In this document: positions 1 to 53,510 of the stretch, piece by piece
Position numbering within the stretch: the stretch's first letter is position 1
Layout: each line of letters opens with the position of its first letter
Source: Patescibacteria group bacterium
GTDB taxonomy: Bacteria > Patescibacteriota > Microgenomatia > UBA1400 > MFAQ01
Direction of reading: 5' to 3'
DNA length: 64,000 bases
NCBI GenBank assembly: GCA_943355005.1
Contig: CALRDV010000003.1
Span: forward strand, 8,590 to 72,589
Notes under the pieces: model-generated
Seen by the model: the letters and a program-made list of their open reading frames with translations, nothing else
What the model was told of the DNA's origin: nothing
The model's database searches: none
Made by a program: the position numbers and the translations under genes

Positions 1-1351
1 CGCAGAGATAAACGATGTCAGTATCAATGGCTTCCAGACCGGCTAAAATTTGTTCGAACATGGCAAGATAGCCTCTTTCCAAATCCAGAATAATATTTTC
101 TCCAAAATCTGTAGGCGCAAGAGAAACACTCACAATTTTTTTACCTTCGGCCGCTTTTCTAAGTTGTCTTTGGCAAATGTTCATAAGAGCAGGCTCTATT
201 TGATTGTCGGTGTAGTAAACGATGCCGACAGTCGGTGGAGACTTAACTATTGATACTGAGGGGGTTTCAAGTGGGGGTTCGATTTCTTCTGTTTTTTCTG
301 AACGAACAGAAGTGGAGCTAGATGGTGGAAAAAGTTGTATAGATTCCGATTCTGTGCCGAGAATAGTGGAAGTAACACTGGGAGTGATAGTGTTACTGGG
401 AACGATGGAGGAAACAGAGTGGTCTTCGGCTTTTAATTTGTCTAAAGCTTCTTGAGTCCAGCCCGGGACCGGCATGAATTTTTCAACTAGCCAAGATAAA
501 GGTTTAATCTGTTTTTCCCAAGTGCCTTTGAAAAATAAATCACGGGCAGTTTTCTTGGCATTACTAACAGCACTGCCTGAAAGGGGATATGGAAAACCAA
601 AGTCTCCGCCTTGCGTGCGGAACATATGGCCATACCAAGTCTTGTGATTTACGACGACTCTTCCTCCGGATAGCCACGTTTTGACAGCTACTTCGATGCC
701 TTGCGACCCCCAACTTCCAAAGTTTTCATCACAAATATTTAGCTCCCAGTATTTATCTCGCGTCATCATAAAACAGGAACCTTGAAGTGACATCGTTTCT
801 GTGATGTCGCCGGTACCTTCAGGTCTTTTTTTGAATTCATTGAAATATTGGAAGTGAGGTTCCGGGTCAAAACAATATGAAGTACTTTGTGGATTATTTT
901 TGGCAATCCAAACGACATCTCTAGTGGTTTCTTTACCACATTGGGAACACACACCACTTGGTCCTTGATAGCGAGAATGGCCATCTGAACAAACCCAATT
1001 GAAAGCGTGCAGATTTCGCATCACGGGGACCATGGTCCAGTCGTCGTGCATTTCCTTGATCATCTTGACGTCAAACCCTTTGTCAAAAGCACAATGGGCA
1101 TCGGCCTTCATCACGTATTTGGCTTTGGAAAGACGACAAAGTTGATTGGTCATACCTCTCTGACCAATTGATTCAGTGACGTGGAAAATAGTAACTCTAG
1201 GATGATCTTTGATTACCGGCTCAGCCCAGGCGCCATCTAGTCCGATTATGACTTCCGTGTTCCCCTCAATATTATCTAAAATATCTTGGACTGTACGAGC
1301 AAGAAACATTTCGTTTCTGGCGGGAATAAGGATACTTAAGTCGTAGGTCAT
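1..1351 (-). CDS. GT-A fold glycosyltransferase (ppGalNAc-T/GT2-like) fused to a conserved C-terminal domain; C-terminus truncated by the window edge
   Basis: Translated by hand from the minus-strand ATG at 1351-1349 (ATGA overlap with the stop of the upstream gene); the frame stays open to position 1. It contains 'KADAHCAF' (DxH) and 'GSWGSQGIEVAVKTWLSGGR' (WGGEN-E-like) motifs. It is a paralog of 11035..12615. It is absent from the ORF track because it is truncated. Confidence 0.6.
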   Translation of the reverse strand, partial: MTYDLSILIPARNEMFLARTVQDILDNIEGNTEVIIGLDGAWAEPVIKDHPRVTIFHVTESIGQRGMTNQLCRLSKAKYVMKADAHCAFDKGFDVKMIKEMHDDWTMVPVMRNLHAFNWVCSDGHSRYQGPSGVCSQCGKETTRDVVWIAKNNPQSTSYCFDPEPHFQYFNEFKKRPEGTGDITETMSLQGSCFMMTRDKYWELNICDENFGSWGSQGIEVAVKTWLSGGRVVVNHKTWYGHMFRTQGGDFGFPYPLSGSAVSNAKKTARDLFFKGTWEKQIKPLSWLVEKFMPVPGWTQEALDKLKAEDHSVSSIVPSNTITPSVTSTILGTESESIQLFPPSSSTSVRSEKTEEIEPPLETPSVSIVKSPPTVGIVYYTDNQIEPALMNICQRQLRKAAEGKKIVSVSLAPTDFGENIILDLERGYLAMFEQILAGLEAIDTDIVYLC

Positions 1352-2307
1352 ATTTTTTTGTTTAAGTTTTGCTGCTTTTTTACTTTGGCAAGTAATTGTT
1401 TCGCGCGAGCAGAGGCAGTGTGATATTTATGTAACCAAGCGTGTCCAGCAAGCCGAATTTTATCAGTATATTCCGGATTAGACAAACAATACTTCAATTT
1501 TTCCATCATTTCTTCCGTAGTATCAAATAGGACAGCTGTTTTTCCATCTTCAAAAGCATGATCTAGCTTAATGGTGGTTCGTTGGGCAAGTAAAAGTGCT
1601 CCCATAGCGGGAACTTCGTAGTAGCGAACTGTATCTTGGCCGTAACCCCATAGAGATAAACCTATTTGAACACTTTTTAGGATTAGGCAGTATTGATCAT
1701 AACTTTTGTGGTAGTTATATGCATTTACTAAAGTGAGAAATGGTCTGCGGGTATCTGTCCATTTACCGGCCCAGAAGATTCTATTCTCTCTGGGTCCGGA
1801 AATATCTGAAGGACATAGAGAGTTTGAAAGTGAAAGTGATAATGGTTTGACAAAATCCGGATACTCGACATCGGGATGGTATTCTCTTTTGAAGTAAATT
1901 AATGGATTGGTAATGTCTATAGCTAGCTGTTCTAAATAAGTCATATCACAGCCGTCCACAAGAACGATGGGTGTGTTTTTTAGATTATTTTTGACGATGA
2001 TATCTAGTGCTTTGATGCTCGCTTCCAATGGATCTCGACGGACAGCATGGACTATGGCTCTGATAGGTCGAACCGCGGCAATGACGAGATCGTATTGACC
2101 GTTACGAAGAAGATCTAGTTTTTCGGCGTCGGTGCGGTTTACCGGGTATGTATAGCTAGATGGGTATCTCATCTCGATGTGTTCGTGAAGAAGAGGTTTG
2201 TGTGGGTAATCGTCGATATTTTCCGAACCTACAACTTGACACAAACCATCGAAAAGGGTATCGGTGTGGACATCTACAAAAGGTATCGTGTAAAAAAGTA
2301 TTTTCAC
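1348..2307 (-). CDS. CgeB-like GT-B glycosyltransferase (Glyco_trans_1_2-like)
   Basis: 319 aa. The C-terminus 'DTVRYYEVPAMGALLLAQ...FEDGKTAVLF' resembles the CgeB/GT1 C-terminal domain. Paralog of 9491..10420. Confidence 0.55.
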   Translation of the reverse strand: MKILFYTIPFVDVHTDTLFDGLCQVVGSENIDDYPHKPLLHEHIEMRYPSSYTYPVNRTDAEKLDLLRNGQYDLVIAAVRPIRAIVHAVRRDPLEASIKALDIIVKNNLKNTPIVLVDGCDMTYLEQLAIDITNPLIYFKREYHPDVEYPDFVKPLSLSLSNSLCPSDISGPRENRIFWAGKWTDTRRPFLTLVNAYNYHKSYDQYCLILKSVQIGLSLWGYGQDTVRYYEVPAMGALLLAQRTTIKLDHAFEDGKTAVLFDTTEEMMEKLKYCLSNPEYTDKIRLAGHAWLHKYHTASARAKQLLAKVKKQQNLNKKI

Positions 2308-2810
2308 TTGATGCTAAATAAAGGCTTAATATTGCTAACGACTGCGACACAGGGAAATATCTTATCGTAGTGGTACCGATATTTGAAGAGTGTCCAAATT
2401 TTGGAGTAACGAAAGTGACGTTCCCATTCCGGTGACGTATTGTTGATAACCATATAGTCGCATTTATCTTTCAATTTTTCAATTTCAACTATGCGATGGC
2501 TGTTCGGAGAATGATCAATGAAAATTACACCCCAATGTTTTTGGTCAAAATCGGCTTTATCCCAGTCCGGACAAAAAACTATATGGTGGTACTGACTCTC
2601 AAAACTTTTGGTTCGATTAAACCAGCGTTCGCTGTTTTCGTATGTATATAACTGACGCTTCATGATATGAGCGAGATGGTGTAGTAAGAAGGTAGAAAAA
2701 TGTCCTGAGCCAATTTCCAAGATATCTCCTTCGGAGATATCAACAATTCTCGTCAGAAGAGGCATATGGACAGCAAATAGATCGTTGTTTTCTGGGCGTA
2801 TTTGTTCCAT
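2304..2810 (-). CDS. Rossmann-like putative class I SAM-dependent methyltransferase (family MT-A)
   Basis: 168 aa with a 'DILEIGSGHFST' glycine-rich loop and a 'VIFIDHSP' motif. It has two further paralogs at 4777..5271 and 5268..5762. Confidence 0.45.
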   Translation of the reverse strand: MEQIRPENNDLFAVHMPLLTRIVDISEGDILEIGSGHFSTFLLHHLAHIMKRQLYTYENSERWFNRTKSFESQYHHIVFCPDWDKADFDQKHWGVIFIDHSPNSHRIVEIEKLKDKCDYMVINNTSPEWERHFRYSKIWTLFKYRYHYDKIFPCVAVVSNIKPLFSIK

Positions 2811-2822
2811 TTTATATATAAT

Positions 2823-3560
2823 TTAGGGTTTCAAAGGCTGAGTTTCTTGTGCCTGGCTGAGGTCATGGAATAATCCTTTGGGGTTGAAGTCTCCGGTGAC
2901 GTGATACCTAGCAATAGGGAACATGTATATAGCCGGCCCGACAGATATCTGAATACCGTTTTTGGCAGCGTAATGATTCCATTTTGAATTTAGATCGCTA
3001 TCCTCACCTTCGCGACTACCGGCATGACGGCCGAACAAACTTCTAGCTTCTAAGTTACCACCTAAGTCCCAGAAAGTAGATTTTTTCATGCAATATGTAT
3101 TGCCATGAACACTCGCATATAAACCTCTTCTGGTCTGAAGCCGTTCCATTTGCATACCGTATTCTTCTAGAATTTCTGGCTCTTGGGAAAGAGTGCCGTC
3201 TTCGAGTAGCACGGCAAAATAACGCGGGAATATCATCTTACTGCCCTCGTAATGGTAAGAGGCCATGATCGCTTCCTTGGACAAGATATGATCGATATCC
3301 GTACAAAGTATGTAGTCACCGGCGGCAAGCTTAACGCCGGCATTTCGGGCAATGCCCTGAGTCCAGGGACGTTTATCGTTGGTTTGGTGTAATTTTAAAT
3401 TCGGGAGATTGTAATCTTCTATCTTGTGAGGTGGGTTGCTACCATCATCAACAATTATAAATTCAATGTCGTCAGGTAAATCCATGGCTTTGAAATGCTT
3501 AACATTTCTGGCTACGGCACCGTGACTGTTGTAAACAGCAATGACGACAGATAATTTCAT
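2823..3560 (-). CDS. family 2 glycosyltransferase
   Basis: 245 aa. N-terminal 'LSVVIAVYNSHG...FIIVDDGS' and a 'CTDIDHIL' DxD-like motif. Confidence 0.7.
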   Translation of the reverse strand: MKLSVVIAVYNSHGAVARNVKHFKAMDLPDDIEFIIVDDGSNPPHKIEDYNLPNLKLHQTNDKRPWTQGIARNAGVKLAAGDYILCTDIDHILSKEAIMASYHYEGSKMIFPRYFAVLLEDGTLSQEPEILEEYGMQMERLQTRRGLYASVHGNTYCMKKSTFWDLGGNLEARSLFGRHAGSREGEDSDLNSKWNHYAAKNGIQISVGPAIYMFPIARYHVTGDFNPKGLFHDLSQAQETQPLKP

Positions 3561-4159
3561 AGTATTTTATCCATCCAGTAATGAGTTCTATTTAGTCCTC
3601 TTAATCGCCATTGGTCATATCTATCGACGGAATGAATTGGTATATGGAAAGCTTTTAATCTTTCGACGGTTTCAGCCTCTCTATATTGTTGAGAGACTAT
3701 TTTTCTGACATCGAAGTCTACCATGAGAGCGTCTACTTTCTCGAACTCTCCCGAGTCAATTAGGTCGTCCAAAATATCGCATTCGGAGCCTTCGCAGTTC
3801 ATTTTCATCACGATATAATCTGCTTTTTTCAGATTGTCTCTAAACCAGTCACTTGCTTTGACCATCTTGACACTTTTTTCGTTTACGTGATCGTCTATAA
3901 ACTTGTCTTTGTAGAGAGTGGCACCATCGGAATCACGGCCAACCTTCTTATTGGCATCGGTGTAAATGGAGGTGTTGCAAGTTTTGTTCCATAAGCCAAA
4001 TTCGCAAATTTCAATCTTGTTACTATTCAAAGCCTGGATGTCTTTACATAATTCTTTTTGGGGCTCAAAACAATAAATTTTGTCAAAGTGATGCTTGCTA
4101 GTAAGTACAGATTGAGCAGTGTCTCCTTTCCAAGCGCCAATATCTAAAAATATTTTCAT
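3557..4159 (-). CDS. FkbM-family methyltransferase
   Basis: 200 aa with 'IFLDIGAWKGDTA...IYCFEPQ', characteristic of Methyltransf_21/FkbM. Confidence 0.6.
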   Translation of the reverse strand: MKIFLDIGAWKGDTAQSVLTSKHHFDKIYCFEPQKELCKDIQALNSNKIEICEFGLWNKTCNTSIYTDANKKVGRDSDGATLYKDKFIDDHVNEKSVKMVKASDWFRDNLKKADYIVMKMNCEGSECDILDDLIDSGEFEKVDALMVDFDVRKIVSQQYREAETVERLKAFHIPIHSVDRYDQWRLRGLNRTHYWMDKIL

Positions 4160-4162
4160 ACT

Positions 4163-4783
4163 TTATTTTACCCACATCCAGCTTTGGTGATGGTCACCGC
4201 TAATTATGAACCAGATGTTTCTGCCTTTGGTGTAGGTGTAGGCGTGAATGACATCTTTTACATTTACTTGGCATTTGGATTTGAAGCCACCACGGCGGTA
4301 ATCATGGCCGGAAATAATGCCACCGGGCTTTACTTTTTTACTCCAGTAGTGAATATCTTCGGCGACATGAATAAACTCATGATTGCCATCAATATAGACA
4401 AAGTCGAGTGATTCATCTTCAAAGTCTTTGACCGCGTCCATGCTAAATTTTTTAATCAGAGTACAGTCGTAATCCTTGGTTCTCTGTTTGGCTTCTTCAT
4501 AAATTTCGTCGTAGTATTTCTGGCCTCCGCTGACATCGTAATAGTCGGGGTATTCGATCCAAGGATCGACACCATATAGTTTAAGCCCTGGAATAGATTG
4601 CAATAATATTTGGGTGTATTCTCCTTTGAGGACACCAATTTCGACGCCGGTTTTGACGTCGAGTTCTTTGAGTAGAGTAGCCAGCCCACCTTCACCACGA
4701 CCCCCTGGTATGACAAAAGCCGGTTTTTGGGTAAAGTCAAAATGATATTTGTTTCCGATGTATTCTTGGGCGTTATTTAGCAT
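4163..4783 (-). CDS. class I SAM-dependent methyltransferase (Methyltransf_24/CmcI-like; family MT-B)
   Basis: 206 aa with 'VEIGVLKGEYT', 'LDFVYIDGNHEF' and 'PGGIISGHDY'. Paralogs at 5771..6385 and 10417..11028. Confidence 0.6.
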   Translation of the reverse strand: MLNNAQEYIGNKYHFDFTQKPAFVIPGGRGEGGLATLLKELDVKTGVEIGVLKGEYTQILLQSIPGLKLYGVDPWIEYPDYYDVSGGQKYYDEIYEEAKQRTKDYDCTLIKKFSMDAVKDFEDESLDFVYIDGNHEFIHVAEDIHYWSKKVKPGGIISGHDYRRGGFKSKCQVNVKDVIHAYTYTKGRNIWFIISGDHHQSWMWVK

Positions 4784-5271
4784 TTGAATTTTTCTAATGA
4801 ATAAAAATTACTTAGGACAGTGGTCCAAGGAACTACTTTATCGTAATCGTAACGATACTTGAAAAGGGGGTAGATACTATTGTAATTATGAATGTTCTCG
4901 TGCTGAGGTTCTGAATCATGAATAATGACGTAATCGGCGTGATCTTTTAGTCTGCCGGCATCGACAGCTCTTTGGAGGGCAGGATCGTGATCGATAAAGG
5001 CGAGACCCCAATGTCGGTCCAGCAGGGGAATATCATCCCAGTTTTTGACAAAAATTATATCGTGATAATCGGACTGTTTTCTTTTGGCAATATTGTACCA
5101 ATGTTCGTTGGCTTCATAAGATACCAATTTGCGATCAAACACTGCGCAGAGCCAGTCCAGTAGGGTAGAAGAAAAATAGCCGGTACCGATTTCGACAACA
5201 TCACCTTTGGAAATGTCAAAGGCTCTGGTTAAGACCGTGAGATGGGTAGCCCACATGGCGATTTTTTTCAT
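4777..5271 (-). CDS. putative methyltransferase, family MT-A paralog
   Basis: 164 aa with 'DVVEIGTGYFSST' and 'AFIDHDP'. Tandem with 5268..5762. Confidence 0.45.
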   Translation of the reverse strand: MKKIAMWATHLTVLTRAFDISKGDVVEIGTGYFSSTLLDWLCAVFDRKLVSYEANEHWYNIAKRKQSDYHDIIFVKNWDDIPLLDRHWGLAFIDHDPALQRAVDAGRLKDHADYVIIHDSEPQHENIHNYNSIYPLFKYRYDYDKVVPWTTVLSNFYSLEKFKC

Positions 5272-5762
5272 GATTCAAATTTGCTAAGTTCGTGAAAGTT
5301 ACTAAGGACACTGGTCCAAGGCTCAACTTTTTTGTGATCAAAACGATATTTGAAAAGAGAATAAATGCGAGGATAGTCATAGCCTTTTTCGGAGCGGGGC
5401 TCAGTGTCGTGGACAATAATGTAATCAGCTTTGTCTTTGAGTCTTTCAATAGTCACAGCCCTTTCTTTGTGAGGATCATGATCGACGAAGGCTAGGCCCC
5501 AATGTTTTTGATCCAGTGGGATGTCGGCCCATTTTTCCACAAAAAAGATGTCGTGATAATCGGATTGCATACGTTTGGCTCTTTCGTACCATTTGGGAGA
5601 AGTTTCGTAGGAAACGAGCTTACGTCCGGAAAAGGAACAGACCCAGTCCAAAAAAGTGGTGGAGAAAAAACCGGTGCCGACTTCCAGAATATCTCCGGAA
5701 GATAAATCGAAAGCTCTCGACAGAAGGGGAATGTGAGTAGCCATTTTGGCGAGATTTTTCAT
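5268..5762 (-). CDS. putative methyltransferase, family MT-A paralog
   Basis: 164 aa with 'DILEVGTGFFSTT' and 'AFVDHDP'. Confidence 0.45.
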   Translation of the reverse strand: MKNLAKMATHIPLLSRAFDLSSGDILEVGTGFFSTTFLDWVCSFSGRKLVSYETSPKWYERAKRMQSDYHDIFFVEKWADIPLDQKHWGLAFVDHDPHKERAVTIERLKDKADYIIVHDTEPRSEKGYDYPRIYSLFKYRFDHKKVEPWTSVLSNFHELSKFES

Positions 5763-5770
5763 AAGTTAAT

Positions 5771-6385
5771 TTAATTTTTTACCCACATCCAGCCGGTATC
5801 GTGAGCACCTTCCGGACCGTTCAAAATAAACCAAGGGCTGATTTTGTGAGATTTAGTCCATGCATCCACTACATCCGTGACATGTACGAATTCGTGTCTT
5901 CTGACACCATAGTCGTGACCGGAAACGATGCCACCTTTGCGAACTTTCTTGCTCCACTGAGCTATGTCATTCGTTACGGCTTCAAAGCGATGATCGCCGT
6001 CGATAAAAACAAAATCGAGCGATTCGTCTTCAAAATCTTTAACGGCGTCTAAACTCCATTTGCGAATGATGGTGCTGTTAGGATATTTGCTTAATCTATT
6101 TTTGGCGTCCTCATAGATGGCGGGATAATGCTTTGGCTTTCGGAAATCTTTATAAACCGGATAGTATTCCCAGGCGTCTATGGAAAAAATTTGCATAGCA
6201 GGATTTGATTGACAAAGAACTTCGGAATATACCCCTCCGAGCACGCCAATCTCGGCTCCACTCGTAAAACCAAGTTCTTTAAATAAGTCCGGGAGATCGG
6301 TCAAACGATTGCATGTAATGTTGGCAGGAGTGCACTCTTTGGGGTCGACATGAAATTTTTCGAAAATGTGTTTGATAGTGTCCAT
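5771..6385 (-). CDS. class I SAM-dependent methyltransferase, family MT-B paralog
   Basis: 204 aa with 'AEIGVLGGVYS', 'LDFVFIDGDHRF' and 'GGIVSGHDY'. Confidence 0.6.
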   Translation of the reverse strand: MDTIKHIFEKFHVDPKECTPANITCNRLTDLPDLFKELGFTSGAEIGVLGGVYSEVLCQSNPAMQIFSIDAWEYYPVYKDFRKPKHYPAIYEDAKNRLSKYPNSTIIRKWSLDAVKDFEDESLDFVFIDGDHRFEAVTNDIAQWSKKVRKGGIVSGHDYGVRRHEFVHVTDVVDAWTKSHKISPWFILNGPEGAHDTGWMWVKN

Positions 6386-6429
6386 AAATAATTTTGGCTA
6401 AGTATATATTAGTTACTAATGACTGTCTA

Positions 6430-7389
6430 TTATGATTTTAGGCCGTAGTATTTGCGCATCCAGTCGAGAGTTTTTTGAACTCCTGTTTTTAAATCAACTG
6501 TGTTTGTGAGGTGAAGATCCCTGATAGCTTTAGAGGAATCGACTTTTTTAATTTTGGTAGTTAAGACCTCACTTTCTTTGTAGGTGATCAGGAAGGGGTC
6601 TGCTTGGGTAAGATTCCAAATAATTTGAACCAAGTCTTCCATGGTGTGTTCTTGATCGCTGCCGATATTGTAGACTTCGCCATCTTTAAAGTTTTCAATA
6701 ATGTTGGCGAGAGTTTGGCAGGTATCCACAATATATGAAGAAGTGCGGATGTGACCTTGATAAACGACAATCGGCAAGTGGTGAAGGGCGGAGTAACAAA
6801 ATTTGGAATTGACACTACGATAGGCGTGGTACCACTCACCCGGTCCGTAGGTATTAAATAGGCGAACAATGACAGATTTGGTGCCATGCATGTGACGTGA
6901 GTTTTCAATTTGCATTTCGTTGACCCATTTACTCATGGCGTAATCATTGAGCTGCTTAATCTCTACATACTTCATAACTTCTTCGGCCATGATTCCGGGG
7001 TAATCACCGTAAACTTCCGAGCTGGAAAAATGGATAAGTTTAAAACCGGCTTGCTCTTGAAGTCGCAAGAGATGTTTGGTGCCAATTACATTAGTTTTCC
7101 AAAGCTGTTCGTAGTAGTCTTCACCATTCCACCTGCCAAATTCGGCGGCAGTATTGTAAACAAAATCAAAAGGACCGAAGCGGTGAAAATATCTTTCCAG
7201 CTGTCTAAACTCAGAAATATCACAGCGGGCATAGCTGGTAGGGGAGAAAAACATCTGATGTTCCCAGCCTGATTCTCTTGGATCATGAAAAATATCCAAG
7301 CCAAAAACCTCATGACCTTTTTCAATTAAGATATTGGTTAGCCATTTACCGACGACACCTTTGCTGCCGGTGATTAGTATTTTTGACAT
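6430..7389 (-). CDS. NAD-dependent epimerase/dehydratase (SDR family, nucleotide-sugar modifying)
   Basis: 319 aa. N-terminal 'ILITGSKGVVGKWL' Rossmann motif, plus 'YAMSK' matching the YxxxK catalytic motif. Confidence 0.7.
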   Translation of the reverse strand: MSKILITGSKGVVGKWLTNILIEKGHEVFGLDIFHDPRESGWEHQMFFSPTSYARCDISEFRQLERYFHRFGPFDFVYNTAAEFGRWNGEDYYEQLWKTNVIGTKHLLRLQEQAGFKLIHFSSSEVYGDYPGIMAEEVMKYVEIKQLNDYAMSKWVNEMQIENSRHMHGTKSVIVRLFNTYGPGEWYHAYRSVNSKFCYSALHHLPIVVYQGHIRTSSYIVDTCQTLANIIENFKDGEVYNIGSDQEHTMEDLVQIIWNLTQADPFLITYKESEVLTTKIKKVDSSKAIRDLHLTNTVDLKTGVQKTLDWMRKYYGLKS

Positions 7390-7401
7390 ATAATCTGAAT
7401 C

Positions 7402-8121
7402 ATGAAAGAACTAAGCATTTGTATGACACATATTAACAGAAAAAGGCAATTATTAAATACCTTGCGAAGTATTCAAATTCAGGAAAACGCCAAAGAGTTA
7501 ACGGAAATAATAATCGTAGATGATGTGAGTAAAGTGCCGCTGAAAATGAGTGATTTTAAAAATATTGATTTGGATATAAAACTCATAACTATACAAACAA
7601 AAAATAAATGGTGGGTAAACCCTTGTGTGGGCTTTAATACGGCTTTCAATTTTATTCATGGTACTAAGGTCATTATTCAAAACGCCGAGTGTCTTCACGC
7701 TACCAACGTGATTGATTATGTAATCAAGAATTTAAAAGAGAAGGAGTATGTCGCCATGAGTGCACTTGGTTTATCGGAGAAAGCGACCAAAGCCATTAAG
7801 ACGTCGACTAAAATTGAAAAAATTTCTAAAGAAGGATCGGAATGGTTGTGTCACAACCGTTACCGGCCAAGAGCATTTAATTTTTGTGCGGCAATAAACG
7901 CCGAAGATTTGCGAATAATTGGTGGTTTTGATAATCGGCTAAGTGAAGGGGTTTACTACGATGATGACATCTTGCTTCAGTCGATAAGGAAAAACAACAT
8001 CGAGATAAGAATCGAGGATTCACAAGTGGTTTATCACCAGTGGCATGAAAAGATTTGGCAAAATTTGGAAGATTACAAGGGTTTACGGGCTAAAAACAAA
8101 CTTCTGGCCAGATCGATTTAG
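7402..8121 (+). CDS. GT-A fold glycosyltransferase (GT2-like)
   Basis: 239 aa with 'IIIVDDVS'. It is the only plus-strand gene in the cluster. Its stop overlaps the stop of the convergent gene 8118..8798. Confidence 0.5.
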   Translation: MKELSICMTHINRKRQLLNTLRSIQIQENAKELTEIIIVDDVSKVPLKMSDFKNIDLDIKLITIQTKNKWWVNPCVGFNTAFNFIHGTKVIIQNAECLHATNVIDYVIKNLKEKEYVAMSALGLSEKATKAIKTSTKIEKISKEGSEWLCHNRYRPRAFNFCAAINAEDLRIIGGFDNRLSEGVYYDDDILLQSIRKNNIEIRIEDSQVVYHQWHEKIWQNLEDYKGLRAKNKLLARSI

Positions 8122-8798
8122 TTATAAATATTTTTGATCATGTGGTCGGCTGTGCCCCAGAAGGGAATTTCGTAGGCGCGGAGTTCGCCCATACGTTTAC
8201 GATTTCCTTGGAAACCATAACCAAGGGCGTCAGGATGTGAGAAGACCACACATGGGGTGGTGGCGGTATATTGTACGGTTTTTCTGACAGTGACTCCCAA
8301 AGCGCCTTCATATTTACCCAGTTCACCAAAGTAGGGGAGAGGAATCTTAGATTCGTCGGGGTATCTGGCAAATCTTTCTTCAAGGGCTTCTATCAGGAGT
8401 TTTCTGGGAGCGATCATGGTGGAGTTACTTATGCGATATTTAAGTGAATAGGTAGGGGGAGTGGTCCAAGAAAAGATGGACCATCTGGCCATATCATAGG
8501 CAAATTCGTCGGGCTTTGGCCGAAAATTAAAATGTTCAGGACTATATAGGGTGTCATCTTCCGCCATGGCGACAAAATCGGTAGTGGCGGCTTTGGCTCC
8601 AAGTAATATTTGCCGATAGATACTGGGCACTCCGCGAGGATAATCAACCACAATATTTTCGCCATAGGTCATGGGTTGATGAGAAATTGAGATGAGGGGG
8701 TAGTCACCTTTAGATCGCCAAAGAATTTCCCGAGCGTTAGTGGCAAAGGGTTCTTTGAGAACGTTGGCGGTGTAATACAAAACGGTAAGATCGATCAT
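8118..8798 (-). CDS. conserved domain protein; standalone copy of the C-terminal domain found fused to the GT-A enzymes
   Basis: 226 aa. 'DLTVLYYTAN...AEDDTLY...PFWGTADHMIKNIYN' aligns to the C-termini of 11035..12615 and 1..1351. Confidence 0.5.
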   Translation of the reverse strand: MIDLTVLYYTANVLKEPFATNAREILWRSKGDYPLISISHQPMTYGENIVVDYPRGVPSIYRQILLGAKAATTDFVAMAEDDTLYSPEHFNFRPKPDEFAYDMARWSIFSWTTPPTYSLKYRISNSTMIAPRKLLIEALEERFARYPDESKIPLPYFGELGKYEGALGVTVRKTVQYTATTPCVVFSHPDALGYGFQGNRKRMGELRAYEIPFWGTADHMIKNIYN

Positions 8799-8807
8799 AA
8801 TAATTAT

Positions 8808-9494
8808 TTACGCTCCATAGATATTTTTGATCATGTCTTCGGCTTTACCCCAGTATGGAATGTCGTAGGCTTTAATTTCGCCTAAATTTTTGCGGCTACC
8901 TAGATATTCATAGCCAATGGCTTCGGGATGAGAGAAAACCACACAAGGGCAGGTAGAAGTATATTGAATTGTTTTTCGGACAGTGACACCTAGTCTGTTC
9001 TCGTATTTACCAAATTCACCCCAGGCACCCAGGGAAATTTTTGACTCATCCGGGTACCGGGCAAATCTCTCCTCAAGGGCTTCGATCAAGAGTTTTCTGG
9101 GGGCAATGAGGGTAGAGTTGCTTATGCGATATTTCATGGAATACATAGCCGGTCTAGTCCAAGAATATATGGACCATCTGGCCATATCATAGGCAAACGA
9201 GTCTGAAGGTGGGCGGTAAGCAAAATGATCTGGACAATATAAAGTATCGTCTTCGGCAAGGGCTACAAACTCGGTGGTGGCAGCTTTGGCACCCACTAAA
9301 ATTTGTTTGTAAATACTGAGATAGGCTCTAGGAAAATCTACCACAATATTTTGGCCATAATCCATAGGTTTTTGGGAAATAGAGATGAGTGGATATTCTT
9401 TTTTGGCTTTCCAAAGAATCTCTCTCGCATTGGAGGCAAAAGGTTCACGAAGGACATTGGCGGTATAGTAAAGAACTGTTAGGTCGATGATCAT
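8808..9494 (-). CDS. conserved domain protein; tandem paralog of 8118..8798
   Basis: 228 aa with the same motif set ('TVLYYTAN', 'AEDDTLY', 'PYWGKAEDMIKNIYG'). Confidence 0.5.
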   Translation of the reverse strand: MIIDLTVLYYTANVLREPFASNAREILWKAKKEYPLISISQKPMDYGQNIVVDFPRAYLSIYKQILVGAKAATTEFVALAEDDTLYCPDHFAYRPPSDSFAYDMARWSIYSWTRPAMYSMKYRISNSTLIAPRKLLIEALEERFARYPDESKISLGAWGEFGKYENRLGVTVRKTIQYTSTCPCVVFSHPEAIGYEYLGSRKNLGEIKAYDIPYWGKAEDMIKNIYGA

Positions 9495-10420
9495 GTTGTA
9501 GAAGTTATTTTAGCCATCATTTGACTGGCGCGTATTTTTGAGGTGTGGTATGTATGATACCAGTTGAGTCCGACTTTCCTGATTTTATCTACGTATGCTT
9601 GATGGCTTAAGCAAAAATCTAGTTTTTCTTTCATTTCTTCGGTATTTTCAAATATAACTGCAGTTTTGCCATCGACAAAAGCATTTTCGATTTCTATTTC
9701 CGGCTTTTGGCTAAAAAGAAGAGTGCCGTGGGCAGGAACTTCGTAATAGCGTACCGTATCATTGCCACGACCCATTAGGTTCAAACCGATACTATTTGAT
9801 AAAAGCATTTGATGATAATCATCGTGATAGTAGTTAGGGAAAGAGTACCCATAGGAATCTCTACAGATTTCCAAATACGGTTCTCTAGAGGGGCTAGAAG
9901 TGCCCGCCCAGAAAAGATTATTTTTTCTAGTGATACTTGTATCGTAGGGCGTGTAATTTAAAGAGAATGAAAAACTGAGAGGAACAACTTTTTTATTTGC
10001 ATTCTTATCGGGAAAGAACTCTCTTTTAAAATATAGTTGGGGGTTGAAATCTTTGATTAGTTTATCGTTAATTTCAAATTCATCACCTTGGTCGATTAGG
10101 AAGGTGGGTATCACTTTAGCCTTAACTTTTAGTAGGTCAAAGAATTCATTATTGGGAAAGTCGGTTATGTATCGACAGCCAATCAAGATACTATCAAATT
10201 CATTTTTTCTTAACTTTTCAGTGGTTAGAGCATCTGTAGAGACTATTGGGTGATTAAAGAAACAAGGATACCAATGAAATCTTCTCTGTTTATCTCCATG
10301 GAGAACTGGTTTTTGGGGATATTCTATAACATTTTCCGAACCAAGATGCTGGACTAATCCGTCGTAGAGAGTGTCGAGTCCGTAATCTAAGAACGTCGGT
10401 GTAATAAATAAAACCCTCAT
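9491..10420 (-). CDS. CgeB-like GT-B glycosyltransferase, paralog of 1348..2307
   Basis: 309 aa with 'DTVRYYEVPAHGTLLFSQ...FVDGKTAVIF'. Confidence 0.55.
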   Translation of the reverse strand: MRVLFITPTFLDYGLDTLYDGLVQHLGSENVIEYPQKPVLHGDKQRRFHWYPCFFNHPIVSTDALTTEKLRKNEFDSILIGCRYITDFPNNEFFDLLKVKAKVIPTFLIDQGDEFEINDKLIKDFNPQLYFKREFFPDKNANKKVVPLSFSFSLNYTPYDTSITRKNNLFWAGTSSPSREPYLEICRDSYGYSFPNYYHDDYHQMLLSNSIGLNLMGRGNDTVRYYEVPAHGTLLFSQKPEIEIENAFVDGKTAVIFENTEEMKEKLDFCLSHQAYVDKIRKVGLNWYHTYHTSKIRASQMMAKITSTT

Positions 10421-11028
10421 GGTTTTACATACATCCAGCTCGGATGTTTATCTTTGGCAATTACAAACCAAGGGTGAATTTGGTAAGAACTGCACCATCC
10501 GGTGACGGCGGGTACGACATGCATATAGCGACGTCGCCAATTGTAAGACCAGTCTTCGAAGTCATGTCCGTAGACTATGCCTCCCGGTCTAACTTTCTTT
10601 GACCAGTTAGAGATATCTTCGACCGTATGTTCGAAGTTGTGATTACCATCAATATAAACAAAGTCTAGACTATTGTCGGCAAATTGTTTGACCACTTCAT
10701 TACTCCAACCTTTAATCAAAGTACAGTCAAAATCTTTGGTACGCGACAAGGCCTCTTCATAGGCAGATTTGATGTCCTCGTTCGTGTAGTCCTTGTAGCC
10801 TGGATAGAGTTCCCAAAGATCAATACCGGAAAGTTTTAGTCCGGGAATACCTTTAAGTAAAGCTTCGGAGTAGGCTCCTCGATAGACTCCAATCTCTGCT
10901 CCGACTTTGAAACCAAGGTCTTTAAAAAGTTGGGGAATATCTGTTTCTCTACTAATCTGAAGCTTAAACGGAGATGGCTGACTAGAATCAATACCAAATT
11001 TTTCAACTAAATAGGCTAGGCTGTCCAT
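10417..11028 (-). CDS. class I SAM-dependent methyltransferase, family MT-B paralog
   Basis: 203 aa with 'AEIGVYRGAYS', 'LDFVYIDGNHNF' and 'GGIVYGHDF'. Confidence 0.6.
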   Translation of the reverse strand: MDSLAYLVEKFGIDSSQPSPFKLQISRETDIPQLFKDLGFKVGAEIGVYRGAYSEALLKGIPGLKLSGIDLWELYPGYKDYTNEDIKSAYEEALSRTKDFDCTLIKGWSNEVVKQFADNSLDFVYIDGNHNFEHTVEDISNWSKKVRPGGIVYGHDFEDWSYNWRRRYMHVVPAVTGWCSSYQIHPWFVIAKDKHPSWMYVKP

Positions 11029-11034
11029 TTTGGT

Positions 11035-12615
11035 TCAAGAATAAAGTTTGGTTATAAGGTCCTGAGCCATGCCCCAATAGGCCAGCATGCGACGAGGTAA
11101 AACATTTCTAAGAACGGTAGGGAATCGGCGGGCGCCATCTGTAGACTTGCAGTTGACGACCGGATTTTCGGAGGTCCAGGTGGTTTTATCTATGGAAGCG
11201 GACATAGTGAGAAGGATGGCTCCCGGTTCGTCTTTGTAGTTTTTGAGAACGGTTTTGATGGACTCAATCCAGTATTTTCGATTTGCCATTTGTGCACCAT
11301 CATAAGGAGCTTTTTGCCAGTATTTGCCACCAAGAGCCCAAACATTTGCATATTGGTAAAGATGATCGTCGGATGGTGGGGTAAAAGTAAAGTATTCCGG
11401 TGGATAAAGACAGTCGTCGTTAGCTATGACAGCGTAGGTAGTTTTGGATTCGGATAAACCTAGCAAGAGCATTTTTAAAGTTGTGGCAGGGCTTACAGGG
11501 GTCTTGGTATTTAGGGTAATGTTCTTGCCTAACTTTAAGGGTTTGACAGAAACAGAAACGAGTGGAAGATCTTTACTGTTTTCTTTTAAACTAGCAATGA
11601 TTTTTTTTTCAAAGTCAGGTTTTTCTGTATTGGAGGTGAGATAAATAACCGTAAGATCCTTATTTCTTTCTGGGGCTTTGAAGAGAGTGGCGGATTTAGT
11701 TGGTTGGTTGGATGTTTTGGGCATATCATTTATTGTATTACTAATTATAGTGGTCGTATTTTCGGGCCATAATCTTTTCTTCCAGTCGGAGGGCCAGCCG
11801 GGCATGAGAGGAAATTTTTCCACCAAGCTGATGAAAAAAACTTTATTCTCCACTAGCCACTTATTATATGAATAAGCATAGCTGCGACGGTTTTCATCCC
11901 TACTTAGATGATACATCCTTCCATAGACGGGTCCTTTGTGAAGATGAGCGTACCAGGTGTTTTTATTGGTGATTACTCGTCCACCGTGTTGCCAAGTAGT
12001 TAGAGAAATTTCTTCGGCTTCTTGGCCCCAACCGGTATAGCCTTCGACCTGCATAAAACCCATTTGTTGGAACCACTTCTTGGTCATAAACCAGCATGAA
12101 CCTTGAAACTGAATGGTGTTGTCTATTCGAACATTCCAATTTGAAAGTGTTCTTTCATCCCACTTGAAGCCGTGAATGGCATGGTCATTGGCTAGAGGAG
12201 GGAACATAATATATTCGTAATCGATGGGTGGGCGATTATCACTTTGGGGTTGAAGACTCCAATTTTCTGCATCTAGTCGATTTCGTCGGGGAATCTGTAC
12301 CCAGTTTGGTTGATGGTCTTTGGCCAGTTGAGTGTCGAAGCCTTTGGCCATCATACAGTGGGCGTCGAGTGACATGACGTATTCACCTTTAGCTTGAGAA
12401 ATAGCTAGATTGATACCATGACGTTTTTGAGAATAAGGCTGAGCAGGGAGATGGATATATCTAACTCTAGGGTCGGTAACAATTTCTTCCTTGGGTGGGT
12501 AATAACCGTCAACAATTGGAAGTATTTCGATATCACCCGTAGCTTTTTCGAGAACGTCCTGAATAGTTCTTTGAAGGAATCTTTCGGTCTTAGATGGAAT
12601 AACAACGGTAAGCAT
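11035..12615 (-). CDS. GT-A fold glycosyltransferase (ppGalNAc-T/GT2-like) fused to the conserved C-terminal domain
   Basis: 526 aa with 'LDAHCMMAKGF' (DxH) and 'GWGQEAEEISLTTWQHGGR'. The C-terminal approx. 200 aa are homologous to 8118..8798. Confidence 0.6.
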   Translation of the reverse strand: MLTVVIPSKTERFLQRTIQDVLEKATGDIEILPIVDGYYPPKEEIVTDPRVRYIHLPAQPYSQKRHGINLAISQAKGEYVMSLDAHCMMAKGFDTQLAKDHQPNWVQIPRRNRLDAENWSLQPQSDNRPPIDYEYIMFPPLANDHAIHGFKWDERTLSNWNVRIDNTIQFQGSCWFMTKKWFQQMGFMQVEGYTGWGQEAEEISLTTWQHGGRVITNKNTWYAHLHKGPVYGRMYHLSRDENRRSYAYSYNKWLVENKVFFISLVEKFPLMPGWPSDWKKRLWPENTTTIISNTINDMPKTSNQPTKSATLFKAPERNKDLTVIYLTSNTEKPDFEKKIIASLKENSKDLPLVSVSVKPLKLGKNITLNTKTPVSPATTLKMLLLGLSESKTTYAVIANDDCLYPPEYFTFTPPSDDHLYQYANVWALGGKYWQKAPYDGAQMANRKYWIESIKTVLKNYKDEPGAILLTMSASIDKTTWTSENPVVNCKSTDGARRFPTVLRNVLPRRMLAYWGMAQDLITKLYS

Positions 12616-12643: not shown

Positions 12644-13321
12644 TCAACTGAAGACGTGGTTGTAGTAGTCAAAGTGTAACTTATCCCGAACGTCCCAATT
12701 GGATTGATAATTGGAAGCGCCTTTGACGTAGCGGAAAGTGCCGGAGACGTTTTGCATGACGTACCAAGAACCATCTTTTTTGACAAAGCCATAGTAAGCG
12801 GGTGAATGTTCGTCGTCGATATCTGTAACGCTATAACCATCTGTGGGGTGCTCTTTGGAGGGGTCAATAATTTTACCTTCGGAGTCTTTGATACCAACAA
12901 CTTCAGTTACGCTATTGCCACCACCAAGGAAAGTATCCCTGGCCTTTTTGCTAAAGAGAGCCATGATAAGAAGAGAAATTCCGGTGGTACCAATGAGCTG
13001 CAAGAATAGTCTTTTGTTCTTATCGGCGACGTCCTTCGGGATATTTTGATCATCAGATTCAGTTACGGAGTTTGAAGCGGACACTGCTTCGTTTTTGGCT
13101 ATTACCGGTAAGGTGGGTAAGGAGCGTTTGGCAGGATTGGGATTGAGAAGGGCATTTTCAATGAGATATTCGAATAGTCTGGTACCAAAGTAAAAAACTA
13201 AGGGAAGATAAATGAAGCCGGCCAGAAGCTGATTGGTAGTTCTGGCGGTGAAAATACCAACAAGCATCAGGAAAAGACAAGCAAGGAAACTATAGATGAC
13301 CAGGGCTTTATCCGATTTCAT
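12644..13321 (-). CDS. hypothetical membrane protein
   Basis: 225 aa. It has an N-terminal TM segment, a second TM and a C-terminal soluble domain. Confidence 0.5.
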   Translation of the reverse strand: MKSDKALVIYSFLACLFLMLVGIFTARTTNQLLAGFIYLPLVFYFGTRLFEYLIENALLNPNPAKRSLPTLPVIAKNEAVSASNSVTESDDQNIPKDVADKNKRLFLQLIGTTGISLLIMALFSKKARDTFLGGGNSVTEVVGIKDSEGKIIDPSKEHPTDGYSVTDIDDEHSPAYYGFVKKDGSWYVMQNVSGTFRYVKGASNYQSNWDVRDKLHFDYYNHVFS

Positions 13322-13701
13322 TTAAGATTTTGCATACTAATGCGGAAAAGTATTAAAGCGATGGCAAAACAAAGGAGGATCAGATTTAAGAGAAAAGTGG
13401 GGTCAGATTGATTTATAAAAGAGGAGAGAGAAAAGTTACCGAAATAGAGGTGTTTCTGGTGGTCCAGATTGAGCAGACTGTGGAAGATTTTTTTAAAATA
13501 TGAAAAGATTTTGAGGGCAAAATAGGTGGCAACCGGAAGAAAAAGGATAAGTATCACAAGGCTGCTGGGACTATTTAGATTTAAAAAGGCAGATGTAATC
13601 ATGAAAAAAGTTACAATACTTCCGTAAAGGAAAAGACCGCTGTCAATAATTTGCAGCTGAGATTTTCTCATGATTTTTTCATTTTTTGACAAAGCCACCA
13701 T
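13318..13701 (-). CDS. hypothetical membrane protein
   Basis: 127 aa, multi-TM, with a 4-nt overlap to its neighbours. Confidence 0.4.
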   Translation of the reverse strand: MVALSKNEKIMRKSQLQIIDSGLFLYGSIVTFFMITSAFLNLNSPSSLVILILFLPVATYFALKIFSYFKKIFHSLLNLDHQKHLYFGNFSLSSFINQSDPTFLLNLILLCFAIALILFRISMQNLK

Positions 13702-14104
13702 ACTGATAAGAAATCAGAATTAGAATGGCAATCAAGATGACTCGCGCTAGCTGAGCAATAGCAGAAAAATTCTTAGTAAAGACGATGTCGGCGATGATGA
13801 TAATGAGGGAAAGGGTGATAAGGAATCTGGTAACTTTGGTAGCAAGGGTGGGGGAGGAAACCTCGATAATAGCTTCACCATCTTTGAGAATTGAAGTAGG
13901 TGTCTTTAAATTTTCATCCAGGACATCTTCAGAAATCTTGCTACCCAGAAAGTTTTCTAGGGCACTGGAGGTGATGATAAATGTGCCACGGATGTGACCT
14001 CTAGCGGCCTTGATACGACCTTCATTAAGGTATTTGTAAGTAGTGTTTGTAGACAGACCCAAGATCTTAGCAGCCTGCTTAACATTATAAATTTTGTTGG
14101 GCAT
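13679..14104 (-). CDS. HTH domain protein with C-terminal transmembrane segments
   Basis: 141 aa. The N-terminus 'VKQAAKILGLSTNTTYKYLNEGRIKA' resembles an excisionase/MerR-type HTH. The C-terminal half is hydrophobic. Confidence 0.5.
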   Translation of the reverse strand: MPNKIYNVKQAAKILGLSTNTTYKYLNEGRIKAARGHIRGTFIITSSALENFLGSKISEDVLDENLKTPTSILKDGEAIIEVSSPTLATKVTRFLITLSLIIIIADIVFTKNFSAIAQLARVILIAILILISYQYGGFVKK

Positions 14105-14141: not shown

Positions 14142-14312
14142 TTATTTCTTTTTACTCTCGGTATCGGAGGCTCCGGCATTAAATTCATTTCGAAACTCCT
14201 TAATGGAGTTTATTAAGCCGCGCGTAATCTCCGGTAGTCTTTTGCCGCCAAAAAGAAGAAAGAGGACGAGTCCTACTAGTAGTATTTCAGACGATCCAAG
14301 ATTGCCAAACAT
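14142..14312 (-). CDS. tatA: twin-arginine translocase TatA/E family protein (copy 1; below the ORF-track length cutoff)
   Basis: Hand translation gives MFGNLGSSEILLVGLVLFLLFGGKRLPEITRGLINSIKEFRNEFNAGASDTESKKK. This carries the TatA signature 'FGGKRLPE'. Confidence 0.7.
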   Translation of the reverse strand: MFGNLGSSEILLVGLVLFLLFGGKRLPEITRGLINSIKEFRNEFNAGASDTESKKK

Positions 14313-14379
14313 TTTTATTTAACTCCTTTCATATCTATAACATTACACTAAACCCCGCCAAAGCGGGGTATGCGTGCGA

Positions 14380-14544
14380 TTATTTCTCGGTGACGGCGTC
14401 TTTTAGGTCTTTGGTAGCGTCTTTTAGGTCTTTTCCGGACTCACCAAGATTTTTTCCGAGTTTGGGAAGAATCTTGCCTCCGAACAAAAGTACCAGGACG
14501 ACGACTATGACTAAAACTTCTGGCCATCCTATATTTTTGAACAT
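14380..14544 (-). CDS. tatA: TatA/E family protein (copy 2; below the ORF-track length cutoff)
   Basis: Hand translation gives MFKNIGWPEVLVIVVVLVLLFGGKILPKLGKNLGESGKDLKDATKDLKDAVTEK. Confidence 0.7.
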   Translation of the reverse strand: MFKNIGWPEVLVIVVVLVLLFGGKILPKLGKNLGESGKDLKDATKDLKDAVTEK

Positions 14545-14577
14545 ATTATTTACTTATAATAATTAATAACTATGATA

Positions 14578-19254: not shown

Positions 19255-19260
19255 GAGGGG

Positions 19261-21800: not shown

Positions 21801-21801
21801 A

Positions 21802-53400: not shown

Positions 53401-53510
53401 GGACTTGTAGTACAATTCCCGTTTGTGTTTGCCCGAGAAAGTTGGGCGCTTAACGTGTATATTTTAAAGAAGGCATGCGGGCGGGTCACGCCCCGCCCCT
53501 ACAAAAAATT

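Follow-up and report, generated by a model that had tools for sequence, protein, structure and literature searches.

We examined a stretch of 64,000 nucleotides (hereafter the window) from a Patescibacteria group bacterium (assembly GCA_943355005.1, contig CALRDV010000003.1, positions 8,590 to 72,589 of the forward strand), in which positions 1-12615 hold a cluster of glycosyltransferase (GT) and methyltransferase genes. At face value this cluster for glycan synthesis and methylation looks ordinary; comparison with related loci makes it probable that it encodes a new variant of protein O-glycosylation found in bacteria of the Candidate Phyla Radiation (CPR) and in phages. The cluster comprises 16 consecutive open reading frames (ORFs), 15 on the minus strand and one, G11, on the plus strand. 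An initial annotation of this DNA had described just such a layout, with the minus-strand genes coupled by ATGA overlaps, and our reading of the junctions agrees: G1, G4, G7, G13 and G14 each begin in an ATGA overlap, G2 begins in a GTGA overlap and G6 in an overlap of 7 nt, the remaining same-strand gaps being 6-47 bp. G1 crosses the window start, leaving its C-terminus and the downstream gene outside our view; exact-match searches with the G16 and G2 proteins returned no contig, and a 60-mer taken from the window start had no exact match in a set of metagenome contigs. By its homologs, G16 points to Candidatus Collierbacteria, ultra-small bacteria of the CPR. Proteins were assigned to families with Pfam and NCBIfam, and paralogy was assessed with blastp:

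G1, 1..1351, minus: two-domain GT, cut by the window start; PF00535 N-domain
G2, 1348..2307, minus: CgeB-like GT-B with GTG start; PF13524, E = 4e-18
G3, 2304..2810, minus: MT-A, the most divergent paralog, 44-45% identical to G7/G8
G4, 2823..3560, minus: GT2, a frequent member of the core cassette; PF00535, E = 1e-14
G5, 3557..4159, minus: FkbM-family methyltransferase; TIGR01444, E = 2e-13, and PF05050
G6, 4163..4783, minus: MT-B (Methyltransf_24); PF13578, E = 3e-17
G7, 4777..5271, minus: MT-A, tandem paralog of G8 (60% amino acid, 68% nucleotide identity)
G8, 5268..5762, minus: MT-A, unannotated 164-aa family; no Pfam match
G9, 5771..6385, minus: MT-B (Methyltransf_24); PF13578, E = 2e-16
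G10, 6430..7389, minus: short-chain dehydrogenase/reductase (SDR) of the extended type, similar to UDP-xylose synthase (UDP-glucuronate decarboxylase); PF01370, E = 6e-38
G11, 7402..8121, plus: small GT2-type GT-A; PF00535, E = 8e-7
G12, 8118..8798, minus: tandem duplicate of G13 (74% amino acid, 73% nucleotide identity)
G13, 8808..9494, minus: standalone C-terminal domain (C-domain), EDD subtype; no Pfam or NCBIfam match
G14, 9491..10420, minus: CgeB-like GT-B; PF13524, E = 3e-12
G15, 10417..11028, minus: MT-B (Methyltransf_24), class I S-adenosylmethionine-dependent methyltransferase, putative sugar O-methyltransferase; PF13578, E = 3e-16
G16, 11035..12615, minus: two-domain GT; PF00535 and weak PF02709; C-terminus 27-28% identical to G12/G13

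Judged by these alignments, paralogy within the cluster is far above chance. G12 and G13 match with E = 1e-133, the MT-B trio G6/G9/G15 is 45-47% identical pairwise, G2 and G14 are 41% identical and G1 and G16 27% (E = 1e-39); the C-domain of G12/G13 matches the C-terminus of G16 with E = 1e-20 and that of G1 at 31-35% identity. The paralog families named in the initial annotation were recovered in this way, including two GT-A proteins with DxH and WG motifs (LDAHC and WGQEAEE in the translation of G16, ADAHC and WGSQGIE in that of G1), a C-terminal domain that occurs twice as a standalone gene, two CgeB-like GT-B enzymes, an FkbM methyltransferase and a GT2 with a second small GT-A. Two of its labels needed adjustment: the three MT-B genes carry a methyltransferase domain as proposed and MT-A does form a family of three, but the methyltransferase identity of MT-A is weakly supported; and the predicted SDR epimerase or dehydratase is an SDR, but specifically one that resembles UDP-xylose synthase. 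By type, G1 and G16 each have an N-domain resembling family GT27, and their two C-domains together with G12 and G13 make up four domains of a new GT-A family; G4 and G11 are GT2 enzymes, and G2 and G14 GT-B enzymes; the GT total counted for the cluster was nine domains in seven genes, with up to seven methyltransferases when MT-A is included. A 19-aa Kyte-Doolittle scan found transmembrane segments in none of the 16 proteins.

The proposal that blocks of the cluster arose by segmental duplication was not supported. The gene orders of the two blocks are not colinear, and G1-type and G16-type proteins fall into distinct, widely conserved orthologous groups: within each, identity to proteins from other CPR phyla is 58-90%, but G1 and G16 are only 27% identical to one another. 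We therefore reject a recent block duplication. In these comparisons only G12/G13 and G7/G8 look like tandem duplicates. A local inversion at G11 is probable, because this is the sole plus-strand gene, only 12 bp separate its ATG from that of the divergently oriented G10 (7389-7402) and its stop overlaps that of G12 (8118-8121); such an inversion would divide the cluster into two transcription units.

Enzyme families of the cluster

The two largest enzymes share an architecture in which an N-terminal GT domain is joined by a Ser/Thr/Pro-rich linker to a C-domain. In G16 the N-domain spans residues 1 to ~290 and the C-domain is of the NDDC subtype; in G1 the N-domain carries an additional Cys/His insertion and only the start of the C-domain lies within the window, complete relatives having a C-domain of the EHD subtype. 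We built a profile of the G16-type domain from 40 sequences (A2) and one of the G1-type domain (A7) and searched both against PDB sequences. The top 15 matches of A2 were all eukaryotic polypeptide N-acetylgalactosaminyltransferases (ppGalNAc-Ts) of family GT27 (E = 2e-7 to 7e-4), with the whole catalytic domain covered, and the top 14 matches of A7 were likewise all ppGalNAc-Ts, including GalNAc-T2 at E = 6.5e-11. An AlphaFold model of residues 1-300 of G16 (pLDDT 89) gave the same answer in a Foldseek search of the PDB, where the top 50 matches were all GT27 structures (E = 5e-14 to 6e-12) with TM-scores of 0.56-0.67 at 16-20% identity. The PF00535 and weak PF02709 pattern of G16 is one that we take to match the catalytic part of ppGalNAc-Ts.

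The catalytic motifs align as well. The Mn2+-binding DxH is present in both enzymes, its D84 and H86 being invariant in both family alignments; the LDAHC of G16-type proteins aligns with GT27 LDCHC, and DxH aligns with the DCH of GalNAc-T4. Both proteins have variants of the Gal/GalNAc-T motif in which W, G and E are invariant, and the G16-type WGQEAEEIS..W..GG aligns with ppGalNAc-T WGGENLELS..W..GG. Downstream, the metal-binding His of VGHVF is matched by that of YAHLH. Profile searches, fold search and motif alignment thus all lead to ppGalNAc-Ts, as the initial annotation had suspected from the DxH and WG motifs, and on this evidence from sequence and predicted structure the GT27 affinity of both large enzymes is real and specific. 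We call G1 and G16 GT27-like rather than members of GT27 because neither has a ricin-type lectin domain by Pfam or a membrane anchor, their maximal 19-aa Kyte-Doolittle scores being 1.08 and 0.91, respectively, with no hydrophobic segment found. Most members of the G16-type family are ~290 aa long and are without a C-domain. The insertion in G1-type N-domains (window ~950-1010, residues ~115-138; HAFNWVC..GH..YQGPSG.C..CGKET), which is absent from the G16-type in the A7 alignment, has invariant H115, C121, C135 and C138 and looks like a small zinc-binding ribbon.

The fused C-terminal domain, which the initial annotation had left for structural modelling, could be assigned through its standalone copy. 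G13 has ~725 homologs (clusters), all named 'hypothetical protein' at source and free of any Pfam domain. Its AlphaFold model (pLDDT 93.6) has a GT-A fold and matched SpsA (E = 5e-7), AvpGT, the fucosyltransferase WrtF, Pasteurella heparosan synthase 2 (PmHS2), K4 chondroitin polymerase (K4CP) and domain 1 of chlorovirus A064R in Foldseek, with TM-scores of ~0.5 and ~10% identity to these GT-A structures; the best match among viral models was an uncharacterised Caudovirales protein (E = 6.6e-15, TM-score 0.73). An E81-D82-D83 motif is invariant in the family and follows the fourth strand (76-81). With its Rossmann-like fold and DXD-type motif, the C-domain is, by the model, a previously unannotated family of GT-A glycosyltransferases, and G1 and G16 would therefore be bifunctional enzymes with two GT-A domains each.

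Among the remaining families, G10 matches PDB 8w3u/9ar1 (Mth373) at E = 1e-90, and Mth373 has been described as a UDP-xylose synthase (PMC12820599). Because of this match, the glycan probably contains xylose. The MT-B family profile has one significant PDB match, 6g7d (E = 3.5e-4), which we take to be a mycobacterial methylmannose-polysaccharide methyltransferase. MT-A is a large family: a profile of the three window sequences matched 1906 representative clusters (E <= 1e-3). Its best PDB profile matches are family-3 class I O-methyltransferases, which are weak (E = 0.017-0.1) and align through motif I, where E27-x-G29-x-G31 is conserved. An hhalign comparison of MT-A with MT-B stayed below significance (E = 0.015, probability 3%) and a Pfam scan of 30 MT-A members returned nothing consistent, so we do not regard the methyltransferase nature of MT-A as proven; that it is a divergent class I methyltransferase is plausible, with weak support. 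Elsewhere MT-A is fused to the C-domain (proteins P0249 and P0329), to a GT27-like domain (P0356), to a GT2 or to a second MT-A, while FkbM is fused to a G4-type GT2 in loci L001 and L009 and a G5-like FkbM to a G6-type MT-B in L017. These fusions therefore tie MT-A, FkbM and MT-B to the GT modules.

Related cassettes in CPR genomes and phages

We scanned 185,579 species genomes with the A2 profile, which yielded 55 loci, and compared their ORFs with the window genes by BLAST. The labelled loci are mainly from CPR lineages (Collierbacteria, Woesebacteria, Saccharibacteria, Paceibacterota, Zambryskibacteria and Peribacteria), together with a Pacearchaeota bin and a few others. Nearly everywhere the same modules stand together: one to four G16-type genes, MT-B, the C-domain, MT-A, a G4-type GT2 and a terminal G1-type gene, which in relatives encodes a predicted bifunctional protein of 560-600 aa. 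The G1-type gene is the most conserved part of the cassette, with a mean column identity of 65%; in most loci it is 70-90% identical to its counterpart in the window. Orthologs of other genes are also well conserved, at 72% identity for G15 (orthologs adjoining G16-type genes), 74-78% for G8, 61-73% for G4 in CPR loci, 62-63% for G9 in L003 and L008, and 47-48% for G14 in L001 and L009. Relative to these loci the window cassette is expanded by the CgeB-like GTs, FkbM, the SDR and G11; recurrent extras within the related clusters are TOD1/MUCI70-like, Glyco_tranf_2_4 and GT1-like glycosyltransferases, methyltransferases and nucleotide-sugar enzymes. In the literature, we found no description of the cassette, of its GT27-like enzymes or of any bacterial GT27-like enzyme whose function is known, of the C-domain or of MT-A.

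Some of the database labels look wrong. Many TPA_asm records of metagenome-assembled genomes (MAGs) titled 'uncultured Pseudomonadales' or 'Gammaproteobacteria' carry loci of CPR type, similar to those of Collierbacteria and Woesebacteria; these include L006, L007, L010, L011, L020, L028 and L029. Other 'MAG' contigs (L023, which is the same as L087, as well as L051, L042 and L058) are phage contigs, recognisable by their head genes, that had been placed in cellular bins, and one phage-type 'MAG' contig labelled Pacearchaeota matches an IMG/VR contig in length and has ORFs 100% identical to those of that contig.

A scan of IMG/VR identified 218 viral contigs with a G16-type gene, of which we examined the best 80 as phage loci. 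The minimal core in these loci is a G16-type gene, MT-B, an optional GT2 and then a G1-type gene, with G4-type genes present in 16 of the 80, so that phage cassettes have 3-5 genes against 16 in the window; nucleotide-sugar dehydrogenase genes recur within them. Upstream lie genes for the large terminase subunit TerL (phrog_2, E = 1e-35), the portal (phrog_1216, E = 3e-48) and the major head protein (phrog_267, E = 4e-14), together with one for an acidic protein that resembles a scaffold. Given this position after the terminase, portal and head genes, the product must act in the cytoplasm. G16-type domains from phages and Collierbacteria are up to 75% identical.

Ser/Thr/Pro-rich proteins, defined here as ORFs with at least 60% S+T+P and at least 35% S+T over 50 residues, occur beside the cassette in loci of both kinds. 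Of the viral loci 61/80, and of the genomic loci 19/55, have a same-strand ORF of this kind no more than 1.5 kb from the cassette, usually at a distance of 2-50 bp, and the density of such ORFs is 2.87 per 10 kb beside the cassette compared with 0.38 farther off in the same loci, a 7.5-fold enrichment. In the Collierbacteria loci L001 and L009 the Ser/Thr/Pro-rich protein follows the G1-type gene by 109-117 bp. In 22 phage loci a family of ~295 aa with a small N-domain and long SPSAS-type repeats directly precedes the G16-type gene, and proteins of 450-1600 aa with similar repeats often directly follow the G1-type gene. The initial annotation had raised the possibility that Thr/Pro-rich proteins encoded near the cluster are O-glycosylated: the enrichment independently supports protein O-glycosylation, but not that target, since the relatives point to a Ser/Pro-repeat protein after the G1-type gene. 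The proteins it had in mind are presumably a 417-aa single-pass protein at 30388-31641, with Thr/Pro-rich regions on both sides of its transmembrane helix, and a 714-aa secreted protein at 23368-25512 that is Thr-rich in places, contains an Ig-like domain and has AhpC/Redoxin as its C-terminal domain; the two lie 11-18 kb from the cluster and have no linkage to the cassette in relatives. By tblastn, none of four families of flanking proteins from relatives (one of 640 aa and Thr-rich, a Ser/Pro family of 618 aa and those of 359 aa and 201 aa) has a copy in the window. The ~640-aa Thr-rich family (MATR.KTIE...), which has no signal peptide or Pfam domain, follows the G1-type gene in five loci, among them L003 (17788-19710, between the cassette and a Ser/Pro-repeat protein) and L028 (19243-20828).

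The upstream flank and the rest of the window

Outside the cluster the window is cellular, with TatC, four TatA-like ORFs, two-component sensors, MreB/MreC, Met-tRNA formyltransferase and FolD. Judged only by their translations, 53475-55583 reads as a type IA topoisomerase and 50553-52088 as a PBP2-type transpeptidase. Because the window carries core cellular genes, we reject the idea that it is viral as a whole. We have no evidence of an island boundary, since promoter and terminator scans of the cluster gave chance-level results and no tRNA gene flanks it. Directly upstream of G16 are small membrane proteins and genes of the twin-arginine translocation (Tat) system:

G17, 12644-13321, minus: small membrane protein with two N-terminal helices, a KR-L-F-L-Q motif, a transmembrane segment and a C-domain of ~100 aa
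G18, 13318-13701, minus: small membrane protein sharing the two-helix N-terminal module of G17
Four TatA-like ORFs, 14142-14947, minus: tandem paralogs of 56, 54, 51 and 77 aa
TatC, 14955-15713, minus: PF00902, E = 3e-35

The G17 family directly precedes the cassette in 23/46 cellular loci and 2/80 phage loci. TatC lies upstream of it in 0/80 phage loci but in 16/46 cellular ones, which represent several CPR lineages. In all full-length members of the G17 family an internal (K/R)R-x-F-L-(K/Q) motif is followed by a transmembrane helix, after two earlier transmembrane helices. G17 thus matches the twin-arginine consensus with its hydrophobic segment, atypical in that the motif is internal and comes after two helices, and its layout is the one expected if Tat inserts the third helix and exports a folded C-domain. 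It is uncertain whether G17 and G18 belong to the glycosylation system, and export of a product of the cluster by Tat is speculation. Tat is the only general export route for folded, and hence pre-modified, proteins. Glycosylated fimbriae of haloarchaea depend on Tat, and nothing there suggests glycosylation before export (PMC11821415); we found no description of Tat export of pre-glycosylated proteins in the literature.

Other features of the window stand on their own. The ORF at 13679-14104 encodes an HTH_17 (excisionase/MerR-like) domain fused to C-terminal hydrophobic segments, apparently an odd membrane-anchored regulator, and is syntenic in Collierbacteria relatives. At 16858-23367 three large sensors follow one another (a dCache-HAMP-PAS histidine kinase, a CHASE4-PAS protein and a triple-Cache protein), with a single transport-type gene among them, for an NMT1/THI5-like periplasmic binding protein, and a stand-alone response regulator adjoining, a signalling block that is unusually dense for a small CPR genome. 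At 44319-46346, 32 kb from the cluster, a 675-aa multi-pass protein combines Wzy_C (O-antigen ligase/PglL-like) with C-terminal tetratricopeptide repeats (TPR) and may be an enzyme that transfers glycans en bloc.

A proposed cytoplasmic pathway and its alternatives

We propose, with moderate confidence, that the cluster carries out carrier-free cytoplasmic O-glycosylation and O-methylation of adjacent Ser/Pro-repeat proteins. The enzymes would form a soluble assembly line that works free of lipid carriers. Initiation, the attachment of a first sugar to Ser/Thr of a Ser/Pro-repeat ('mucin-like') protein, would fall to a GT27-like enzyme, our guess for this initiator being the universally conserved, single-copy G1-type enzyme; the remaining GT domains would lengthen the chain stepwise and the methyltransferases, MT-A perhaps among them, would cap its hydroxyls. 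The product would be a heavily O-methylated, probably xylose-containing oligosaccharide on proteins encoded beside the cassette. We infer that the acceptor is a protein and that in this genome its gene lies just beyond the window start.

Several points weigh against this proposal. Its basis throughout is sequence, predicted structure and gene neighbourhood, and which protein appears as the closest relative in the PDB depends on which bacterial GT2 structures have been solved. Enzymes with a GT27-like fold can use sugars as acceptors too, and G16-type genes occur in two to four tandem copies elsewhere, so not all of them can be initiating polypeptide transferases; by their copy number most G16-type enzymes must be elongating, and many would act on sugars rather than on polypeptide. 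No Ser/Thr/Pro-rich neighbour lies within 1.5 kb in 36/55 genomic loci, many of which are incomplete. The Ser/Pro-repeat neighbours in relatives have neither a signal peptide nor a twin-arginine motif, which leaves their export in cells unexplained. Because the window is cut inside G1, the proposed acceptor is outside our view here, and the only strongly Thr/Pro-rich protein within it (30388-31641) is 18 kb away. The window does, moreover, contain the Wzy_C/TPR gene.

That gene speaks for a lipid-carrier route, which we consider unlikely. Here the soluble GTs would build the methylated oligosaccharide on undecaprenyl phosphate at the inner membrane face; once it has been flipped, the Wzy_C/TPR protein or a relative would move it en bloc onto protein, peptidoglycan or lipid, with the genes for initiation and flipping located elsewhere. 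Methyl caps do occur on some O-antigens, the peripheral GTs of O-antigen pathways also are without transmembrane segments, and G4 and G11 have weak partial matches to models of GT2 enzymes from exopolysaccharide, teichuronic-acid and PglI-type systems. However, Pfam and NCBIfam found no phosphoglycosyl transferase, Wzx/Wzy, flippase, polymerase or ABC transporter among the 16 genes, carrier-pathway genes are missing from the examined window ORFs, and the corresponding families (phosphoglycosyl transferase, flippase, ABC transporter, polymerase) are not recurrent in the 50 genomic and 80 viral related loci. The initial annotation had named ordinary GT2 synthases with no GT27 affinity, in an undecaprenyl-linked context, as the case against its own reading; the cluster shows GT27 matches and no such context. 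A carrier route also fits poorly with cassettes in phage head modules beside Ser/Pro-repeat proteins and with key enzymes whose nearest relatives are the protein-modifying GT27. A non-protein product, either an intracellular polymethylated polysaccharide like those of mycobacteria or a glycolipid or lipoglycan built on scavenged lipid, would account for the many methyltransferases in a cluster with no export genes, for the 6g7d match of MT-B and for the resemblance of the two-GT-A-domain enzymes to the polymerases K4CP and PmHS2, but it leaves unexplained the Ser/Pro-repeat adjacency, the phage head-module location and the specific GT27 likeness, and we regard it as very unlikely.

The phage loci raise another alternative, that the cluster is cargo of a prophage, or of an island derived from a phage, situated for the most part to the left of the window, and glycosylates head-decoration or fibre proteins of a virion in place of cellular proteins. 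The core cassette in 218 IMG/VR contigs, directly after TerL, portal and head genes where examined, the close similarity of phage and Collierbacteria G16-type domains and the fibre-like downstream neighbours without signal peptide in relatives all speak for it, and the left flank is outside the window. The upstream flank, on the other hand, is cellular (TatC/TatA, G17/G18, two-component systems, MreB, TopA) and syntenic in several CPR lineages, GC content is uniform across the window, and scans of the window ORFs, with Pfam and NCBIfam only, gave cellular families. Phage head-module families are also not found near the Collierbacteria relatives L001-L011, and the 16-gene expansion contrasts with the short phage cassettes. 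We therefore consider a prophage origin of the window copy quite improbable. A bolder form of the cytoplasmic protein-glycosylation proposal would see in the system an equivalent, in prokaryotes and phages, of mucin-type O-glycosylation, in which GT27-like initiators, maybe related by descent to the eukaryotic family, act in the cytoplasm on Ser/Pro repeats of virion and CPR surface proteins, new GT-A and methyltransferase families elaborate the glycan, and in CPR the pathway is coupled to the co-located Tat system; taken as a whole, this version is quite improbable.

The proposed carrier-free cytoplasmic glycosylation of Ser/Pro-repeat proteins has partial parallels in several known systems. 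With the eukaryotic ppGalNAc-Ts of GT27, which initiate mucin-type O-glycosylation, the cluster enzymes share the GT-A fold with DxH, the WG-x-E-x-E-like motif and the downstream His, and Ser/Pro-repeat proteins stand nearby in relatives; they differ in their low sequence identity, in having a second GT-A or no C-domain in place of the ricin lectin, in being cytoplasmic without a type II membrane anchor, in the Cys/His insertion of the G1-type, and in occurring as multiple paralogs per cassette, which implies that some acceptors are sugars. The pathway that glycosylates serine-rich repeat proteins (SRRPs) in Gram-positive bacteria, where it is paired with accessory Sec export, performs stepwise cytoplasmic O-glycosylation with soluble GTs encoded beside a Ser-rich substrate (PMC6973325), the substrate being inferred here from relatives, and GalT1 of that pathway (5hea) is a secondary PDB match of the G16-type and G1-type profiles. 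Unlike in SRRP systems, we saw no GtfA/GtfB pair and no SecA2/SecY2, the only GT-B enzymes are CgeB-like, and no recurrent family of SecA/SecY size was found among the neighbours that were scanned. Furthermore, the candidate initiators are GT27-like GT-As, methylation is heavy, the neighbours have no signal peptide, and the association is with Tat rather than with an accessory Sec system.

Viruses offer a further parallel. The chlorovirus protein A064R is a soluble GT-GT-methyltransferase that acts on a structural protein (PMC9614988), and capsid glycosylation of the mycobacteriophage Che8 type is cited in PMC11256854. As in these systems, the phage cassettes encode soluble GTs and methyltransferases, include multi-domain GT or GT-methyltransferase proteins and sit within head modules, and the C-domain model matches the domain-1 structures of A064R (2p72/2p73). 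The enzyme families here are different, however (GT27-like, C-domain and MT-A), chlorovirus glycans are N-linked, and the window copy is cellular and much larger. K4CP of Escherichia coli and PmHS2 also combine two GT-A domains in one soluble chain and both match the C-domain structurally, but at ~10% identity and with other domain types; the context here is rich in methyltransferases and we found no evidence of polymerisation.

A conservative reading of these data defines one new enzyme family (the C-domain), one candidate family (MT-A) and a conserved gene neighbourhood. If the proposal of protein O-glycosylation is true, a single mobile cassette, shared by many CPR lineages and their phages, would equip Ser/Pro-repeat proteins with methylated O-glycans, by means of enzymes whose closest characterised relatives are the animal transferases that initiate mucin glycosylation. 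A function would be available for the C-domain (~725 clusters), MT-A (~1900 clusters) and the ~290-aa GT27-like family (>1000 proteins), and glyco-engineering would gain GT27-like enzymes that are soluble and compact. Glycosylation of phage virions would then reach far beyond mycobacteriophages, with a bearing on the origin of GT27. A recent study calls glycosylation in Saccharibacteria unexplored and describes cultivated CPR bacteria as living attached to other cells. Because CPR bacteria are thought to live in this way, their surface chemistry probably matters for cell contact.

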